Source: a virus (lineage: Duplodnaviria; Caudoviricetes). Taken from it: DNA of 60,071 bases. A program made the position numbers and the translations under genes. The notes under the pieces were generated by a model. The model was given only the letters and a program-made list of their open reading frames with translations, was not told the origin of the DNA and ran no database searches. The number at the start of each line of letters is the position of its first letter. The stretch's first letter is position 1. Positions 25,542-35,194 of this stretch are shown here, piece by piece. The DNA lies in IMG/VR virus record IMGVR_UViG_3300012202_000001, positions 1 to 60,071 of that record; one strand, written 5' to 3'.

Positions 25542-28340
25542 TCAGAAACTCGAATCGATTTCTATGTACAGATCGCCCCAGTGCTTTTGATTGCGTGTGT
25601 CCCCCGCGTTATACGCCCCGGTGAGGAAGATCACGCATCCGGTTTCCCCTCCCACCCGAGTGAGCGGTCGCACCGTCCCGTCATTGTTCGAGGTCAGGGT
25701 GCCATTGATGCCAGGGCCTTCTTCCAAGATGTGAAGGATCGTCGGGTACTGATAAACATCCCGCACCCAGCCTTTCGTGAGGGTGCTGTAGACCAACGTC
25801 TGCACCACCGAAATTCCGTTCACCAGCGCAACGTAATCGTAATAGATGTAGCCATTGGCGGCATTCAGTTTTTGCAACAGCGGTTGCGTGTCGTCCGGAG
25901 GATAAACAATGAAAGGACCGCGGACTACCGGAGTGGGAGTAAAGCCTTCGTGGGGAAACAGATTGTAGAGATCTTCATCGGTGATGGACTCTGCCCCTTG
26001 ACCGCCATGCGAGACCGAAATCCCGTCCTTGGTTCTGAAGTACACATCCCGGCCACCGTCCACGCACAAGCAGCGTTGCAGGTAAAGGCCGCGATCGGAG
26101 ATTGATTCCTGCAGGGTCCACGTCGAGCCCAGAGTTCCACTGACCGTGGAGAGCGCATTGAAGAAGTTGGGGAAGATCAGCCATGCGCGCTCGGTCGAGA
26201 ACACCATGCCGATTCCATTTACGATGCAGCCATTCTGCAAGGGCTCACTGGGGCTGGTGACGTCCTGGGAGTTGGTCTCCGGCGCCGAATCTGGGTTGTT
26301 TCCCTTGCACCAGTAAAGCGTTCCCGGTCGCAAGTTGTCGCCACAGGCAAAGAAGAACGAAATGTTGTCAGTCGGCCCCCAGAGATAGGCTAACGGCTGC
26401 GCGGCCAGATTTGGCTGAGTGATGAAGTAAAACAAATTACTGCCTTGTGGTGGAAAGACACTCTGTACCGCGCCACCCACAATCTGCTGGGTCGAGACCA
26501 GCATGTGACGATTGTCACTAGGCCGGTTATAGAGGGTGAAGGCTGTCCCCTGATTCGGATTCGCCCCGCTCGATCCGATAGTGACAATTGTTCCCGGCAG
26601 CCAACGGATATTGAACAGGTCTCCCGAGAACCACGTCACCGCACCATTCGCGCCTACGTTAACCGTTCCACTGCGAGGGAGATCGATAGTTGGGAAAGGT
26701 TCGAAGTTATCGAACTGCAGAACCGGATTCGCGACAATCGCCGCATCCAGCAATTGATCGGAGAAGGGCGCATTCGAGTTTGGTCCTGTCCCCACGTACG
26801 TAAAGTTGGTGAGGGCGCTATCAATGCGATAGAAATCAATCTTGTCGACTTGGGGATCGGTCGAAGCGGTTGCCGAAATCGTGTTAGCCAGGACGGAGGC
26901 CGCCTGTTGCGCGGAGGCTGGCGAAGGATTCGAGGTTGCTCCCGTCGCCGAGGATCTGTAGACATAGCGATACTGCGCGCCGGTGATGACGTTGGTGGCA
27001 ATGGGCAGAAGATTGACCGTATTCCCCGAAACCACCGATTGCACGATGAGGCGCCGCTGCGAGTGGAACCAGTAGTCGTAATCGACTTCGAGCGGATAGT
27101 TCCCGGCTGCCGGAAACGTGACTACCACGGTTGCCGCGTTGGTTTGTCCGCCCCCATCCAGGGTGATGGTTTTCGGCATGAGCGGATAGCCGTTCTTGGC
27201 GGTGAGCGTCTGACCGGAAGAGGACAACTGCTGTCCCCCAGTCGGCGCCGCCCATGTTGGTTGTCCACTAGAATTCGCGCCGATGCCCCAAATGGTCTCG
27301 TCTTTCGAGTTGAGGGTCAGGGTGTAGGCGCCAGGAAATGGAACGTATAACGTCGCTTCCGCAGCGAAGTTGAAGTCCTGATATCCTTCGCTCTCCAGCG
27401 CCGGCTGGAACAAGGCTTTCGATCCCTGCTGAATCGTTGCCTGATAAGAAACGTTGGACTGGACTCCCGCGGTCTGCTGAATGGTCAGCGCGATAGCCGA
27501 AGGCACCGTCGCAACAATAAACTGGCCGGCGCCGATGATGATGGTTTGCCCCGGTTCAATGCCGGTGAATTGCGATCCTGATACCCAACTGACGTTCAAG
27601 CCATTGGTATTGACCGTGCCCGAGATGTTCGAATAGATCGTCCAGGCCATCGGGTTGGCTTGCGTACCAAACGGACTGGCATCAAACAGCAGAGAGCTTC
27701 CGGTGGTTGCTCCGGATGGAGGTACTAGAGCGCGAACCGGCCCCGATCCACTCGAATCTCCAGAATTTTTCCAGATATAGTTTCCGGTTGGTCCGCTATG
27801 TGGCGAATCTCCCCAGTAGGTGACGGTCACATTCCCCAACAGGGACAGTGAAAGCGACGCAGCCACGACGCCGATAACCGGCGCTATTTGCGGCTCTTTG
27901 ATGCCCATCTTGAAGGTCGTCTGATCGGAACGAACCTTGTCCATCTTGTTGCTGTCGCCGACATACATCCAGGGCTGAACGGAAGTGTTGGGGCGGAATG
28001 CAACCAGGGAAATAGGATTGCCGCTGAATCCGCTGTCGACTAGGGTCGTATTCGCGTACAACGTGTTCCCGACTCCCGCCACTAAAATAAAGCCCCCTGC
28101 CGGTCCTGCTGGCGTGAGGTCATTCAAGCGGCGCAAGCTGTGCGCGCCGGGTGGGGGAAGAGTGAGCACCGAGGAATCCTGAGAAGCCCGAGGCGTAATG
28201 CCGCCAACAACGTAGGCGCGGCAATTTTGGCCATAAACGAACTTATTCGTCGGCATCAAATCCATCGGCCTGGACAGATTCATGCCAGCATAATGCAACC
28301 TCGTGCCATCAGTTTCTCTTTGATATTGCTTCTCCGGCAC
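25542..28340 (-). CDS. Tail nozzle/stabilisation-like protein with a PA14-like insert
   Basis: 932 aa, beta-rich; [26 protein letters not shown] is PA14-like; follows the adaptor gene. Confidence 0.55.
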
Positions 28341-28839
28341 CAGCCCCCCACTTCCTTCGATTTCTAGACTGCTCTTTTACTGTGGCCCAACAACAGTTGC
28401 TTGGTTCGTAGTTTCCATTGTTGTCAATTCGCTCAATCGACATCCCGTCTGGACGTGGACCCATGTCATCTCGAAAGTTTGGAAAAGAATGCTGCCAGCG
28501 TTTACACATCCGAATTCCACGTCCGCCATACAGGTAATAGTCTTTCGACTTGCGGTTGTAGCATCGACGCTTAATCGCGCTCCACACACCATATAAAGCC
28601 GTGTTCGTTTGCCCATGCACATATTTCCGTCGTGCAGAAAGTTCCCGTCTCAAACACCCGCAACTTTTCGTATGGCCGCCCTTTAATGCAGTCGCAAATA
28701 CTGTCGTCAGCTTTTTGCAATCGCAATGGCATAACCATCTCGCCGGAGATCGTGCGACAAGTTTCTTTACTACCAACCTGCCGAATCTTCGTTTCCGTAA
28801 ATCCTCCGGAACAACATCAGGGCGAGTTCGTTTTTGCAT
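28309..28839 (-). CDS. Free-standing HNH-type homing endonuclease
   Basis: [43 protein letters not shown]; paralogue of 5401-5898. Confidence 0.88.
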
Positions 28840-30372: not shown

Positions 30373-30579
30373 CTATCGTTTGCGGCGAGATCGCTTCTTC
30401 CCCTTCTTGCGCTTCTTCGACTGTCCCGATTCCGAAAGGGCGATGGCAATCGCTTGACGGCGCGAAGTAACTTTCTTCCCACTACTACTGCGCAGCGTTC
30501 CATGCTTGAACTTGTGGAGTTCTTCCCCAGTCCGCTTGCGCTTGGCCCGTTTCGAGGCACTACGTTTCAGCCGAGGCAT
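30373..30579 (-). CDS. DUF6496-like small basic protein
   Basis: HKFKHGTLRSSSGKKVTSRRQAIAIALSE. Confidence 0.7.
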   Translation of the reverse strand: MPRLKRSASKRAKRKRTGEELHKFKHGTLRSSSGKKVTSRRQAIAIALSESGQSKKRKKGKKRSRRKR

Positions 30580-30581
30580 CG

Positions 30582-30794
30582 CTACCGTCCTATTTTTCTG
30601 CCGTTCTTATCCACCACCAGACCAATGTCGGATCGCAGTTTGTCCAGTTCGTCCGTAACATGTTTTTTGGCCACATCGAGTTCATCGCTGATATATTTCT
30701 GCGCGTCCTTGAGTTCAGAAAACACGTAGCGATGCAGAGCCATTCCGCCCACCATGCCCAGCAGAAACGCCAGCACGACATACACGTAATTCAT
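30582..30794 (-). CDS. Single-TM lysis-cassette protein
   Basis: MNYVYVVLAFLLGMVGGMAL followed by an amphipathic helix; overlaps the holin stop. Confidence 0.6.
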   Translation of the reverse strand: MNYVYVVLAFLLGMVGGMALHRYVFSELKDAQKYISDELDVAKKHVTDELDKLRSDIGLVVDKNGRKIGR

Positions 30795-31333
30795 AGAATC
30801 CCCACCTTTCCTTGTTGGGCGAGGATTTGCGTTTTGGCTGCAGATCCCGCCGACGATCCAAAATAGTAGGCCACCACCGAAGTCCATGCGGTGCCGAGAG
30901 CCCCGATCATAACCAGCAACACATCATGTCCAGCATCGGGGATGGAATGAAAAAACATTAAGCTGAGTGTGCCAAAAAATCCCAAGGTTACCCCAATGGC
31001 GAGCATCCCTGGCATGCGATCCTTGACCGCCACTTCTCTTGCGCGCGCGCTGGCTCTATCTGCCGCCGCCACCTCTTCCAGCTTCTCTACACTGTCGTAG
31101 CCCATCTTGGCCATCGTCTCGGCATACTCTTTTTCCGCCGCATCAAGCTTGACGCGCCCCTCTTCAGTGGTCGACAAATTCTGCATTACGCCAGCAATGT
31201 CCGGCGCCTTGACCGTTCCACCAGTAACTTTCGTGAGAATGGAAGCGGCAATCGATCCAGCGGGACCCCCAAACACCTCCGCGGCAGTCGCCAGATACGG
31301 AACCGTTTTTTTGAAAAATGCCCCAACACCCAT
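30791..31333 (-). CDS. Putative holin
   Basis: ADRASAR.RE, two C-terminal TM helices, YYFGSS.GS..K motif. Confidence 0.7.
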   Translation of the reverse strand: MGVGAFFKKTVPYLATAAEVFGGPAGSIAASILTKVTGGTVKAPDIAGVMQNLSTTEEGRVKLDAAEKEYAETMAKMGYDSVEKLEEVAAADRASARAREVAVKDRMPGMLAIGVTLGFFGTLSLMFFHSIPDAGHDVLLVMIGALGTAWTSVVAYYFGSSAGSAAKTQILAQQGKVGIL

Positions 31334-31336
31334 GAC

Positions 31337-31654
31337 TTATCTCCCCAAGTGACCCACGAAGAACTCGACCACAAACTTGGCTACTGCCGTCATAAAGCCG
31401 CCAAGCATGGCGTACAGCAACGGTTTCGCCCGATTCGTTAGACTTAATTTCTTATTCAAGCTGGCAATCATCTTGTCGCGCTGGAAAATCGATTCGTGCA
31501 ATTCTGCAATGACTTGATCTCGATCGGATAGTGCCGTTTTGAATAATCTCAGTTGCCGCCAGTTCTCATTCAGTTGATCACGCAGTTTTTCAGGATCCGT
31601 ATCGGTGTAATGCATACTTCTGTCCGGACTTTCCTCCTCATCGCGACCATTCAA
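31337..31654 (-). CDS. Coiled-coil protein with C-terminal TM (lysis accessory)
   Basis: Composition and position. Confidence 0.6.
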   Translation of the reverse strand: MNGRDEEESPDRSMHYTDTDPEKLRDQLNENWRQLRLFKTALSDRDQVIAELHESIFQRDKMIASLNKKLSLTNRAKPLLYAMLGGFMTAVAKFVVEFFVGHLGR

Positions 31655-31863
31655 AATGTGTCCCCGTAGGACCTTGCCTTGGCATCCACTTGCTGCTGTA
31701 AATCCTTGGTGAGAGCGACCATGCGCCTGATTTCTTTTTGCGCTCTCATCATGTGCCGATACCGGGTGCTGCGATCGGGCTCACCCAGAGCCAATTCCAG
31801 AAAACCGTTGATGGAGGTAAGGATATTCACTTGATCATGAATCAGTCGCCGTATGGCCTTCAC
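31651..31863 (-). CDS. Stand-alone HisKA (DHp)-like mini-protein
   Basis: LIHDQVNILTSINGFLELAL..AQKEIRRMVALTKDL matches the H-box two-helix pattern; no ATPase domain. Confidence 0.6.
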   Translation of the reverse strand: MKAIRRLIHDQVNILTSINGFLELALGEPDRSTRYRHMMRAQKEIRRMVALTKDLQQQVDAKARSYGDTF

Positions 31864-32251
31864 TCACGGCTCCTTCCGGACTTTTATTAGCGACCACCTT
31901 CAAATCATGGTCACCACTTTTCCACATCGCCTCTCGTACTCCTCTGCTTTGGATAATGCAACCTTCAGAAGCCGTGCCTGGGAATCCTTTCTTGTCTCCA
32001 TGAATTCCAAAATCTTCCCGGCCCAACATCTCATTCTCTCGATCAGGTTCAAGCCAGAGCACGTATGCACCATGCTTCTCAGTGTCGACAGGTTCCTTCA
32101 TCTTGTAGAGTCCGACCGGAATCGGCCCTTGATCCTTTATGTGCGTCGCGCTGGAATCGTTTTTGTATTGCGGTGATCCGCTGTAGCCGACACCATTAAG
32201 GTCTCCCTTGTCGGAATACATTCTGCCGGTCGAGATCTCGTAGACCCACAT
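31835..32251 (-). CDS. Tlde1 (DUF2778)-family L,D-transpeptidase-fold enzyme, probable endolysin
   Basis: W.YE.STG, GYSG, GPIP.G.Y, F.IHGD..GTASEGCII. Confidence 0.8.
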   Translation of the reverse strand: MWVYEISTGRMYSDKGDLNGVGYSGSPQYKNDSSATHIKDQGPIPVGLYKMKEPVDTEKHGAYVLWLEPDRENEMLGREDFGIHGDKKGFPGTASEGCIIQSRGVREAMWKSGDHDLKVVANKSPEGAVSEGHTATDS

Positions 32252-34048
32252 CTATTGCACTCCATTGGTAAACAGATTCACCATATCGATATCGGCGCCG
32301 GGATCACGTCCATCAAGTGCTTTGGCGTGCACTGGACTGGTGAGCATGAGATGGTAATCCCCGCCGATGCTGCCGCTGTAGTTGACAAACTGAATGGTTG
32401 ACCAGTCGGCGACAAACAGATTTCCAGCCGGCCAGTCAGCCGGCAAAGGGCGCTGTGAACCTGCGGTAATGAAGGCGTTGCCGGAAAATTTACTGCTGCC
32501 GAAATAACACGCATTCACGATCCGCAGAGGAGTGCTTCTGCCTGATCCAGCCGGCATGACGGCACAGTTATCGGCTCCACCTGCTGAAGCCGACATCCCG
32601 AAAATTCCAGCCAGGGAGATGCTGTTCAAGTAGCTGATGTTTTCGAGTGTCGGGGTGTTCGTAGAATTGCTTTTAGGTACGCCTCTTACCGATAACCATG
32701 CCAGAGGAACGGCTCCCGTTGCCAGCGAAAGCCGACTGACCTGGGTAATGTGGTTAATCAGCACATCCGACATGATTTCTTGTGGGGGTGGGGGATTCGC
32801 CGTGATGTAAGCGCTGGCCAACTGCCCAAGATTCGTAGAACAAGCGAAACAGGTAGCGTACTGAATTCCATCCGCGACCAGATCGTGAATACTGACCCGG
32901 TGTTGGCCTTGACTCCATCCTCCATCGTCGTTAGGTCCACTGTCGATTGCCGCCCAGGCAGCAACGTTTGAAATCTTGCTATAGCGAATCACTAGATCAG
33001 TGATCGTACAAAGGGAACATAAGTTGGTGCCATTCGGCCCAGCTTGGCTCTTGGGACCGCTCAGAATACCGAATCCTACCTGAGTAAAGCCTCCCCAACT
33101 GTTTTCCATGACATTGCCTTCGAGCAGGATGCGACAACCGTTTTTCAATTCGAATAGATTTTTGACGATGTACTTGACGCCGATGAAATTCGGATCATTG
33201 GGATTCCAGGCTTGCGGCTTGTAGAGGTAGTTGCGCCGGATCTCGACATCGTTTGGTCCGCAACCATCTGCCGGCCCCCCGCCAAACAGGATATTTTCGG
33301 CGGCAGCTTCGAGAAAGTTGTTGACGATTTTGAATGGCCCTGACGCCGGTATGCCTGTACCTACGCCGCCGCTGATAGCCTGAGAGTCAATACAGGATCC
33401 GGTAACGGCAATGCAGTGAAACTCTTCGAAATCGGAATCGATGACGGCGACGTACTGGCCGTTATTGAGGGTGAAACCGCGTCTGGTTTCCTCTTTAGGA
33501 TTCCCCAGCATGCGGTTACGGTCAAAGATGATGTACTTCGCGCCGTTTCCCGTAGCGAAGGCAACCAGTTGTGCACCAGCTTTCTTCGTCCAGGCAATGC
33601 CGATGAAGCGCAGGTGATCGCCTAAAGTTGCCGGAGGTTTGCCGGGAGCAAAAGAAAAGACTGCGAGTTCGGCCTGATTCGCAGCCGTTACGCGCGTGCC
33701 TTCGGGCGGCAGGTTGCCATCCGACTTGATCGTAATCCAGTGCTGATCATCACATCCTTTAGCGGAAAAATTAAATGGGGCATCCCAGGACGCGCCATGT
33801 GCCAGCAGTAAAGTTGTTCCACAAGAAATCGTGTTGTAGGCAGTTTGTAAGTTCTGCCCTGCTGCCAGGGGAACCACGGCGCCGGGAGACGGAGTATTCG
33901 CGAGCGCGGTATTGAGGCAGCGCTGGGGAAGCGCAGCCGGTCCATCGCTGGTGTTGCCGATCCAGACATTCGCCGGTGAGCAGTAACGATTATCTTGAGC
34001 ATGCGCGATTCCGACTAGCACGATGGCAGCGTACAGTGCATTTCTCAT
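32252..34048 (-). CDS. Secreted right-handed beta-helix (polysaccharide lyase-like) protein
   Basis: Signal peptide ending AHA-Q; NNFLEAAAENILFGG, KNLFELKN..RILLEGNVMENSW. Confidence 0.75.
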   Translation of the reverse strand: MRNALYAAIVLVGIAHAQDNRYCSPANVWIGNTSDGPAALPQRCLNTALANTPSPGAVVPLAAGQNLQTAYNTISCGTTLLLAHGASWDAPFNFSAKGCDDQHWITIKSDGNLPPEGTRVTAANQAELAVFSFAPGKPPATLGDHLRFIGIAWTKKAGAQLVAFATGNGAKYIIFDRNRMLGNPKEETRRGFTLNNGQYVAVIDSDFEEFHCIAVTGSCIDSQAISGGVGTGIPASGPFKIVNNFLEAAAENILFGGGPADGCGPNDVEIRRNYLYKPQAWNPNDPNFIGVKYIVKNLFELKNGCRILLEGNVMENSWGGFTQVGFGILSGPKSQAGPNGTNLCSLCTITDLVIRYSKISNVAAWAAIDSGPNDDGGWSQGQHRVSIHDLVADGIQYATCFACSTNLGQLASAYITANPPPPQEIMSDVLINHITQVSRLSLATGAVPLAWLSVRGVPKSNSTNTPTLENISYLNSISLAGIFGMSASAGGADNCAVMPAGSGRSTPLRIVNACYFGSSKFSGNAFITAGSQRPLPADWPAGNLFVADWSTIQFVNYSGSIGGDYHLMLTSPVHAKALDGRDPGADIDMVNLFTNGVQ

Positions 34049-34057
34049 AAACCCCTT

Positions 34058-34294
34058 TCAACGTTTCTTGCCCCCAGGATCGTATGTAGCAGGATTCGGG
34101 CATGGGGGACTTCCGCTATAGGGATAGCCGTTGATCATCGAAGGGCAGGTATGCCGTGTGGCGAGTGCTACTGTGACTCCGACTGTCGCTCCGATAGCTG
34201 CTCCATAAATCAAGGGGTGCCGTCGCATCGAGGCGCATCCAGTGAGACTTAAATAAAACGCGAACACCATCGCTACTCGCATCGAGCTTTTCAT
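34058..34294 (-). CDS. Small lipoprotein
   Basis: Lipobox LTGC. Confidence 0.55.
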   Translation of the reverse strand: MKSSMRVAMVFAFYLSLTGCASMRRHPLIYGAAIGATVGVTVALATRHTCPSMINGYPYSGSPPCPNPATYDPGGKKR

Positions 34295-34307
34295 GCTGCC
34301 CTCCTGT

Positions 34308-34664
34308 CTACCAGGGAACCTGAGTTCCAGGCATGACACCGCTACTTCCAGCGGCAAATACTTCCGACAGATTGCGGTCACTCCTCATCTGGTTGTTGAA
34401 ATTTGTGAGCGGTCCGCTAGGAACAATTCCGGACAAGCCATTCGAACTTGTCCATGCGCCGGTCGTCAGGTTGACCGTAATCGTCACGAGCGTACTGTAC
34501 ACGCCGATATTGAACGAGGCCGGTGCGCCCGAGCCAATCTGGAAACTAAAGGTAGCAGTGTTCGCCAGGAAGTCGACCGTAAAGCCAGTGCATGCGCCTT
34601 GCGTGTTGTTCTCCTGCGTGACCCCGTTGATGACTACAAGTTTTCCGGTCGTAAGAGTGATCAT
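34308..34664 (-). CDS. Putative virion structural protein
   Basis: T/G/N-rich beta protein in the structural operon. Confidence 0.6.
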   Translation of the reverse strand: MITLTTGKLVVINGVTQENNTQGACTGFTVDFLANTATFSFQIGSGAPASFNIGVYSTLVTITVNLTTGAWTSSNGLSGIVPSGPLTNFNNQMRSDRNLSEVFAAGSSGVMPGTQVPW

Positions 34665-35194
34665 GAGTGCTCGATTCTGCGGTAAATCCGCTTGATTTGC
34701 TCTAGGAACTGCTCGTACGAGGTGTCGCGCTTCATGTAGTTACACTGCTTGCAACATGAAACACAGTTCTCGATCGTGTAATTTTTCTGGCTGTCCTTTC
34801 GATCGATGCCGTTGAAGATGAAATCACCTTTGTTCGTGATTACTTTTGTGTGGCACCGTCGAATACGCGATGGGATGATTCCGCAATAGTGACACTCGCC
34901 TTGAAAGAGAACTTTCGCTTCGTCATCCGCGAGTTCCCATGCGATCTCCCGAATGACAGAGTTGCTTTTGTACTGTCTAAGAATCGCCTTGAATCCCGAA
35001 TCGCCGCGAGTGATGCAGTCTCGACATTTAGTGCTACCGCCACTTCGCAGGTTGTTTTGCTCTACATGTCTTTCATTTCCGCAAGAGCAGCGACAGATCC
35101 ATCGCGTGCGATGGTTCCCTTGCTCCACTCGTCGAAGTACAGTCCACTGCCCAAATTGCATGTTCTTGATTAGCGATGCGTCGAGTAATTTCAC
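34661..35194 (-). CDS. HNH-type homing endonuclease
   Basis: WICRCSCG, CHYCG, NGIDRKDS.K.YT.ENCVSCC.QCN.MK. Confidence 0.88.
   Translation of the reverse strand: MKLLDASLIKNMQFGQWTVLRRVEQGNHRTRWICRCSCGNERHVEQNNLRSGGSTKCRDCITRGDSGFKAILRQYKSNSVIREIAWELADDEAKVLFQGECHYCGIIPSRIRRCHTKVITNKGDFIFNGIDRKDSQKNYTIENCVSCCKQCNYMKRDTSYEQFLEQIKRIYRRIEHS

Follow-up and report, generated by a model that had tools for sequence, protein, structure and literature searches.

A putative stand-alone DHp mini-protein encoded among candidate lysis genes of a phage from soil metagenomes

The DHp fragments of Escherichia coli EnvZ ('domain A') and of NtrB are helix-loop-helix modules with an H-box of the type H-E/D-x-x-T/N and no ATPase domain, and both are laboratory truncations of complete kinases. 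Domain A of EnvZ comprises about 67-70 residues. The DHp domains of EnvZ and NtrB are described in the available text of one study as sufficient on their own for phosphatase activity, with a constitutive phosphatase phenotype in vivo; within the H-E/D-x-x-T/N motif, the same text reports the T/N residue to be required for phosphatase activity only and the acidic residue for kinase activity only (PMC3510030). Spo0B, ChpT and PhyT are dimeric histidine phosphotransferases, DHp-type helical histidine carriers without kinase activity; they contain a further domain at the C-terminus and work within a defined phosphorelay, neither of which is present in the case reported here. Such an additional C-terminal domain is found in Spo0B. 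ChpT resembles the typical histidine-kinase structure, according to the available text of PMC3433190.

Direct manipulation of two-component signalling by phages is barely documented, and one clear case, PIT4, was found (PMC10714779). PIT4, an early gene product of Pseudomonas phage LSL4 that binds kinase domains, shows that phages target two-component kinases (PMC10714779). PIT4, MgrB, SafA and Sda are, like the protein reported here, small, and they interfere with two-component kinases; none of them is described as a DHp homologue in the literature covered. Stand-alone DHp mini-proteins of the same size and the same domain-only architecture are already known in bacteria from clusters of the ESM Atlas, and the kind itself is therefore not new. 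What is new here is the viral carrier, the position in a lysis region and the absence of a co-encoded regulator. No paper on a phage-encoded DHp-only protein, or on a HisKA/DHp domain in a phage or a lysis cassette, was found in the main texts of the literature searched.

A gene encoding a 70-residue stand-alone DHp-like protein (the mini-protein) was identified in a phage genome. The window, which is the whole stretch of DNA that was analysed, is a complete phage record; it measures 60,071 bp and carries direct terminal repeats. Whereas the EnvZ and NtrB fragments were made in the laboratory, the mini-protein, which is about the size of domain A, is the product of a natural, independently translated phage gene; it has only 8 residues before its histidine and no known cognate regulator. 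The HisKA and SPOB_a domains of complete sensor kinases of the HD(F/L)NN(I/A)LT type have the H-box, the position of the histidine and the predicted hairpin in common with the mini-protein, whereas the latter scores below the cut-offs of both families and lacks HATPase_c, sensor and receiver domains. The mini-protein is carried by a phage that looks virulent; its gene is located in the lysis region, and the genome contains no regulator gene.

The genes of the phage include those for a major head protein, a terminase and two HNH endonucleases. Neither a tRNA nor a tyrosine integrase was found in the 60,071-bp genome, and its DNA was detected in soil metagenome DNA runs only. When 185,579 prokaryote species (GTDB), represented by a single genome each, were scanned with alignments of the mini-protein and of its 105-residue neighbour, no relative was found; these genomes therefore contain no prophage copy and give no clue to the host. 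Among GenBank phages, the mini-protein had a single chance match (E 0.9) and the neighbour had no relative. Because of these results the carrier is considered an uncultivated, probably virulent soil phage. The complete genome was searched for the Response_reg domain and for HATPase_c (PF02518), and neither gave a match at E<=1. Sensor, receiver and ATPase domains are thus absent from the 70-residue open reading frame and from the rest of the genome, which bears out the original prediction that a sensor and an ATPase domain are missing. Any phospho-partner must therefore be encoded by the host. The two HNH genes (28309-28839, minus strand, phrog_374, 1.1e-60; 34661-35194, minus strand, phrog_1035, 7.5e-12) are located amid structural and lysis genes, like homing elements.

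The mini-protein gene (31651-31863, minus strand) was recognized from its open reading frame, its homologues, the ratio of synonymous to non-synonymous differences and the predicted hairpin of its product. It starts with GTG at 31863-31861 and ends with TGA at 31653-31651. A Shine-Dalgarno sequence of the AAGGAG type, GGAAGGAG (31870-31877, minus strand), is located 6 nt 5' of the GTG, and the ribosome-binding site GGAAGGAGCCG is kept in three of the four DNA copies of the gene (window, L003 and L004) and differs in L005. The start codon is a weak one, GTG or TTG, in all four copies. In the frame of the mini-protein, pS is 0.66-0.82 as against a pN of 0.18-0.21 in each of the six pairs among these copies, a pattern that points to strong purifying selection, with synonymous differences saturated and non-synonymous ones few. 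Codons 4-10, including that of the histidine, show synonymous differences between the copies, and this holds for L005 too, where the upstream gene overlaps by 4 nt only. Since pS is far above pN and codons 4-10 vary synonymously, the frame is considered to be translated and under purifying selection, N-terminus included, and the open reading frame is almost certainly a real gene, as had been predicted. Plus-strand open reading frames of 50-51 residues across the locus were rejected, since it is the frame on the minus strand that agrees with the pattern of substitutions.

The upstream gene (31835-32251, minus strand) overlaps the mini-protein gene by 29 nt at its 3' end. This agrees with the predicted overlap with the stop of an endolysin gene as far as the overlap goes; the 'endolysin' is a Tlde1/DUF2778 protein with a lytic role that is inferred from position. 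The predicted ATGA coupling to the next gene is not borne out, as the junction reads TTGA, where the next gene starts with a TTG (31654-31652) that overlaps the TGA stop (31653-31651). An ATG immediately after the stop shares the reading frame of the mini-protein rather than that of the downstream gene, and by our reading would open just about 26 codons. A true ATGA overlap is found two genes further, at 30794-30791, between the genes of a 180-residue and another 70-residue protein.

The H-box RRLIHDQVNILTSINGFLELAL spans residues 5-26 (31786-31851, minus strand) and was assigned from a BLASTP alignment of histidine on histidine and from motif conservation. The original prediction had pointed to an H-box followed by a second helix; the H-box it quoted, IHDQVNILTSINGFLELAL, corresponds to residues 8-26, and a second helix is indeed predicted at residues 31-65. 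His9 is encoded at 31839-31837, Asp10 is the residue at His+1 and Asn13 that at His+4 (H9-D10-Q-V-N13), so that the H-E/D-x-x-T/N pattern is present with a histidine of the phospho-acceptor type, an acidic residue at +1 and T/N at +4. The histidine, of which conservation in homologues had been named as a check, is present in all ten alignment rows with a known N-terminus. Asp10 occurs in nine of these ten rows, the tenth having Asn, and Asn13 in all twelve rows. The motif pattern would fit selection for acting on a phosphorylated receiver and not for autophosphorylation, which with few sequences is suggestive only.

Codon 12 is ATG in six of the ten full-length rows and GTG in the window's own gene. 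Two database entries (P0009 and P0011) have been called from this codon as proteins of 58 residues without the histidine. A histidine-less product started at codon 12 is conceivable; that residues 2-11 are conserved speaks for production of the long form.

The mini-protein family comprises 11 distinct members with 44-69% identity, all from uncultivated soil phages or metagenomes. The alignment contains 12 rows for these 11 proteins, because P0009 and the L004 gene are one protein, P0009 being called from codon 12. A word-index search with the single protein returned two proteins among two candidates, one of them the window's own, whereas the alignment-based search gave nine proteins from 55 candidates. 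An exhaustive phmmer search of 1.84 billion representatives gave three proteins at E<=0.001, one of which is a true homologue of 73 residues. The other two (P0004 and P0005), which are long tandem-repeat or low-complexity sequences with four matching stretches each, were judged spurious. No kinase was found at E<=0.001 in this search, and neither it nor the GTDB scan provided a sequence-level link between the phage protein and the stand-alone bacterial DHp proteins. A metagenome scan yielded six loci from 240 pattern matches, three of them close (65-69% identity) and three distant. An IMG/VR scan with the single mini-protein had no result, the mini-protein has no family in PHROGs, and none of 1774 candidates for fused or longer forms scored at E<=10.

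Several lines of evidence, each below its own threshold, link the mini-protein to the DHp domain. In hmmscan, HisKA (PF00512) was the first of 24,736 Pfam models (E 5.7e-4), with residues 13-56 aligned to positions 15-58 of the profile; the score of 20.3 bits is below the curated gathering cut-off of 26.9 bits. The search against PF00512 that had been proposed as a check thus places HisKA on top, at a score that does not reach the curated limit. SPOB_a (PF14689) was second (E 0.015), its 15.3 bits being below the 28.1-bit cut-off. Both families belong to the His_Kinase_A clan. When six members were tested at E<=1, SPOB_a was matched by five (best E 0.0017) and HisKA by four, none of them above the cut-off. 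SPOB_a is also present in the precomputed annotation of one homologue, and the L003 homologue matched none of the Pfam families at E<=0.1. When all six frames of the 60-kb genome were scanned with PF00512, the mini-protein's open reading frame was the sole match (genome-wide E 6.8e-5, 19.3 bits).

A language-model feature search of the ESM Atlas gave similarities of 0.98. Of the three clusters listed, the first is an unannotated 75-residue cluster and the second and third are proteins of 72-75 residues with HisKA in 41% and 80% of members, respectively; the ten best family-bearing matches all point to one family or clan. Of the three distant metagenome loci, L006 encodes a complete GAF-HisKA-HATPase_c-REC kinase, and L007 and L008 each encode a REC-HisKA protein that lacks an ATPase domain. 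These loci were found with a query-derived motif among 241 million records, and their pairwise E-values are not corrected for that scan. Residues 7-61 of the mini-protein align by BLASTP with residues 304-355 of the L006 kinase (42% identity over 55 residues), His9 being placed on His306, which is inside an above-cut-off HisKA match of this hybrid kinase. The BLASTP alignment with a REC-HisKA protein has 35% identity. An hhalign comparison of the mini-protein family with the segment of the L006 kinase had a probability of 95.9%, and by gap-free extrapolation His9 falls on column 11 of the HisKA profile, like the histidines of two above-cut-off matches. Against the family profile, the kinases of L006-L008 reach about 22 bits only.

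The REC-HisKA genes L007:1327-1971 (plus strand) and L008:751-1428 (plus strand) encode fusions of a receiver and a HisKA hairpin of 214 and 225 residues, respectively, and represent natural kinase-less REC-DHp proteins. Each is located 3' of a helix-turn-helix regulator gene with a receiver-like N-terminus.

The structure of the mini-protein was predicted by AlphaFold2 from a three-sequence alignment, and the AlphaFold check that had been proposed gave a confident hairpin (mean pLDDT 94.4, pTM 0.74) with helices at residues 2-27 and 31-65, a three-residue loop and a C-terminus 5 residues past helix 2. The second C-terminal alpha/beta domain by which Spo0B-type phosphotransferases are recognized is absent from this predicted fold. 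In Foldseek searches of the PDB the best matches are encapsulated ferritin-like hairpins, and the matches include the kinase DHp domains of KinB, WalK, HK853 and an EnvZ chimera at 20-28% identity. No match was found at E<=0.001 in the PDB or among viral models, and the hairpin fold is generic. Against PDB sequences, a three-member profile gave nothing at E<=10 and the single protein gave chance matches only.

Taken together, this convergent evidence and the predicted fold support the stand-alone DHp hairpin of the original prediction, and the mini-protein is very probably a remote DHp homologue. It is not a sensor kinase, because neither the protein nor the phage genome contains an ATPase domain, HATPase_c being neither attached nor co-encoded. 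A convergent or chance likeness to HisKA, in an otherwise unrelated helical hairpin, would agree with the position of every family match below its curated cut-off, with the empty PDB profile search and with the lack of specificity of the fold searches. This is improbable, as the partly independent lines (hmmscan, language-model features at 0.98 and the alignment of histidine on histidine) pick a single clan, and HisKA ranks above all other Pfam models for the window protein.

The mini-protein gene is located among genes that resemble a lysis block. The upstream gene encodes a 138-residue Tlde1/DUF2778 (LD-transpeptidase-like) protein, a candidate endolysin that was identified by Pfam (PF10908, 2.6e-15, 57.3 bits against a cut-off of 30.1) and by PHROG (phrog_24118, 4e-36 over residues 1-121). 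In a comparison with 58 GenBank phage records, all 20 listed matches cover residues 1-121 only. The protein contains an H-G...S-E-G-C-I stretch, which we take to be the LD-transpeptidase catalytic motif. Its last 17 residues, beyond the family match, are encoded by the leader and the first 29 nt of the mini-protein gene. Similar C-terminal tails are present at 31835-31885 of the window, L003:3470-3516 and L004:240-289, in two Tlde1-like proteins and one unrelated zinc-ribbon-like protein (L004). The tails are alike because all of them are read from the conserved leader and first 29 nt of the mini-protein gene, and since unrelated upstream proteins share such a tail, the gene seems to travel together with its own ribosome-binding site.

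The downstream gene (31337-31654, minus strand), assigned from its TTG start, its context and a predicted helix, encodes a 105-residue protein made up of a single long helix (predicted at residues 21-104) with a hydrophobic or amphipathic C-terminus. Similarity to clusters named XhlA in the ESM Atlas (0.86, under the bar of 0.9) is a lead only, and XhlA (PF10779) had no match in this protein at E<=10. Charged residues occur in the C-terminal segment of all four homologues; a true membrane anchor is therefore uncertain. The next gene (30791-31333, minus strand) encodes a 180-residue protein with C-terminal hydrophobic segments, which matches phrog_1544 (6.7e-11), a family of unassigned function, and no Pfam family. 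Comparison with the GTA_holin_3TM protein encoded in L009 gave no significant similarity (E 1.0), so that position and architecture are the sole grounds for naming the 180-residue protein holin-like. The gene at 30582-30794 (minus strand) encodes a 70-residue protein with an N-terminal hydrophobic segment, which is a candidate spanin or holin accessory by its sequence and a weak match to the Rz-like spanin phrog_1152 (E 0.11), with no Pfam family. An embedding of the mini-protein gene in a lysis cassette is a reasonable reading of this gene order, and the gene looks like an insertion into the cassette in one sub-lineage.

Other genes were observed around this block. A 598-residue protein encoded just 5' of it (32252-34048, minus strand) carries a signal-peptide-like N-terminus and matches neither a Pfam nor a PHROG family, and similar N-termini occur at comparable positions in L004 (810-1853) and L009 (3732-4949). 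The 598-residue protein gene separates the lysis block from a small open reading frame (34058-34381, minus strand) with a lipobox-like LTGC behind a hydrophobic N-terminus and weak matches to Rz-like spanin and Cor-like PHROGs at E 0.05-0.25, which may encode an outer-membrane spanin or an exclusion lipoprotein. A highly basic 68-residue DUF6496 protein (E 1.8e-7) is encoded immediately 3' of the block (30373-30579, minus strand). In L009, a DUF5675 protein (L009:5581-6012, plus strand; E 2e-27) occupies the enzyme slot of the cassette beside a GTA_holin_3TM holin, which suggests an endolysin candidate.

The neighbourhood bears on whether the mini-protein has a role in lysis itself, as a small dimeric helical module that works with the long-helix (XhlA-like) protein or the holin and times or regulates lysis without involvement of host signalling. 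The 105-residue protein is encoded directly 3' of the mini-protein in all four loci with DNA context, stop and start overlapping or abutting, whereas the upstream neighbour varies (Tlde1 in two, zinc-ribbon-like in one and a membrane protein in one). On the minus strand from 32251 to 31337, no promoter-like or terminator-like site occurs between the genes. In L009, moreover, a homologue of the partner is flanked by genes for a DUF5675 protein and for a holin of the GTA_holin_3TM family (3.8e-14) in the same cassette. However, the 10-kb loci of two more distant phage contigs (L009 and L010) contain partner homologues with 45-52% identity and no mini-protein (best profile E 0.42), and since the block that is most conserved is retained in these homologues, the hairpin is dispensable for the partner. 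That the two genes are adjacent may reflect the insertion site only, and the kept histidine and Asn at +4 are unexplained by a purely structural role. A complex prediction for two copies of the mini-protein with residues 1-78 of the neighbour, scored for the neighbour only and without controls (0.00), speaks neither for nor against a partnership. A role confined to the lysis machinery is rather unlikely.

Two further explanations place the mini-protein in host signalling. As a poison of kinases, it would form mixed four-helix bundles with the DHp domain of a related host kinase and block autophosphorylation or signalling in a dominant-negative manner, for which its H-box is suitably close to the HD(F/L)NN(I/A)LTSINGF type of host-like hybrid kinases (the alignment with the L006 kinase), and PIT4 is a known phage protein that binds several kinase domains (PMC10714779). 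Yet the searches, whatever the protein length, revealed no close relative among full-length kinases. Nothing therefore indicates that the gene was recently captured from one particular host kinase, as specificity of heterodimers would presumably favour, and with just 8 residues before the histidine, the protein lacks the N-terminal stalk that takes part in kinase dimers; such poisoning is improbable. The mini-protein could otherwise be a histidine phosphotransferase or a phosphate sink, in which His9 takes the phosphate from a phosphorylated host response regulator and drains it or passes it on to another receiver, as in Spo0B, ChpT and PhyT. The invariant histidine, SPOB_a as the family most often matched by members (five of six) and named in one annotation, and the kinase-less REC-HisKA proteins in metagenomes are in keeping with this, and bifunctional DHp-type transferases are documented in the available text on PhyT (PMC5898713). 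Transfer or storage of phosphate is distinctly improbable, since the extra C-terminal domain of Spo0B and ChpT is absent from the mini-protein and a stoichiometric sink needs high expression, yet the start codon is weak in every DNA copy.

The invariant H-D-x-x-N points instead to dephosphorylation or sequestration of a response regulator, and this reading is favoured here. The mini-protein would be a minimal, kinase-less DHp hairpin of the His_Kinase_A clan, in which an H-box helix 1 (His9-Asp10-x-x-Asn13), a loop and helix 2 retain the half of the DHp domain that docks the response regulator. Because the N-terminal signalling stalk, the sensor and the ATP-binding domain are missing, it cannot autophosphorylate. 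Made with the late or lysis genes and probably dimeric, the mini-protein may bind the receiver domain of one or a few host response regulators and act as a constitutive phosphatase or sequestrator, in line with the behaviour of the engineered EnvZ and NtrB fragments, by which a host two-component pathway would be kept OFF until the phage cycle ends. Some action on host two-component signalling is rather probable, while the specific activity of a regulator-directed phosphatase or sequestrator is put forward tentatively. For a protein with the task of altering host transcription, a place in a late operon is odd. The original prediction, by which the mini-protein would interfere with host two-component signalling during lysis as a decoy, a phosphate sink or a dominant-negative inhibitor, is plausible and fits the literature, whereas envelope stress as the targeted pathway is pure conjecture. 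It is very unlikely that the hairpin serves as a phospho-sensing lysis clock, in which reverse transfer of phosphate from a host regulator sensing the envelope or energy state would gate the XhlA-like or holin proteins and a histidine-less isoform from codon 12 could act as an antagonist; if true, it would mean that the phage times lysis by reading host two-component signalling.

The family is small and comes from soil metagenomes only, with no cultured host. A natural viral DHp protein of 70 residues without a kinase would be the counterpart of the 'domain A' fragments that have been used for decades to dissect kinase and phosphatase activities, and evolution would have been shown to use the same trick as the engineered domain A. 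Such a protein would also be of use as a compact OFF-switch that is genetically encoded and acts on a signalling pathway, and it would open a way into the large, unstudied class of DHp mini-proteins that stand alone in soil bacteria.
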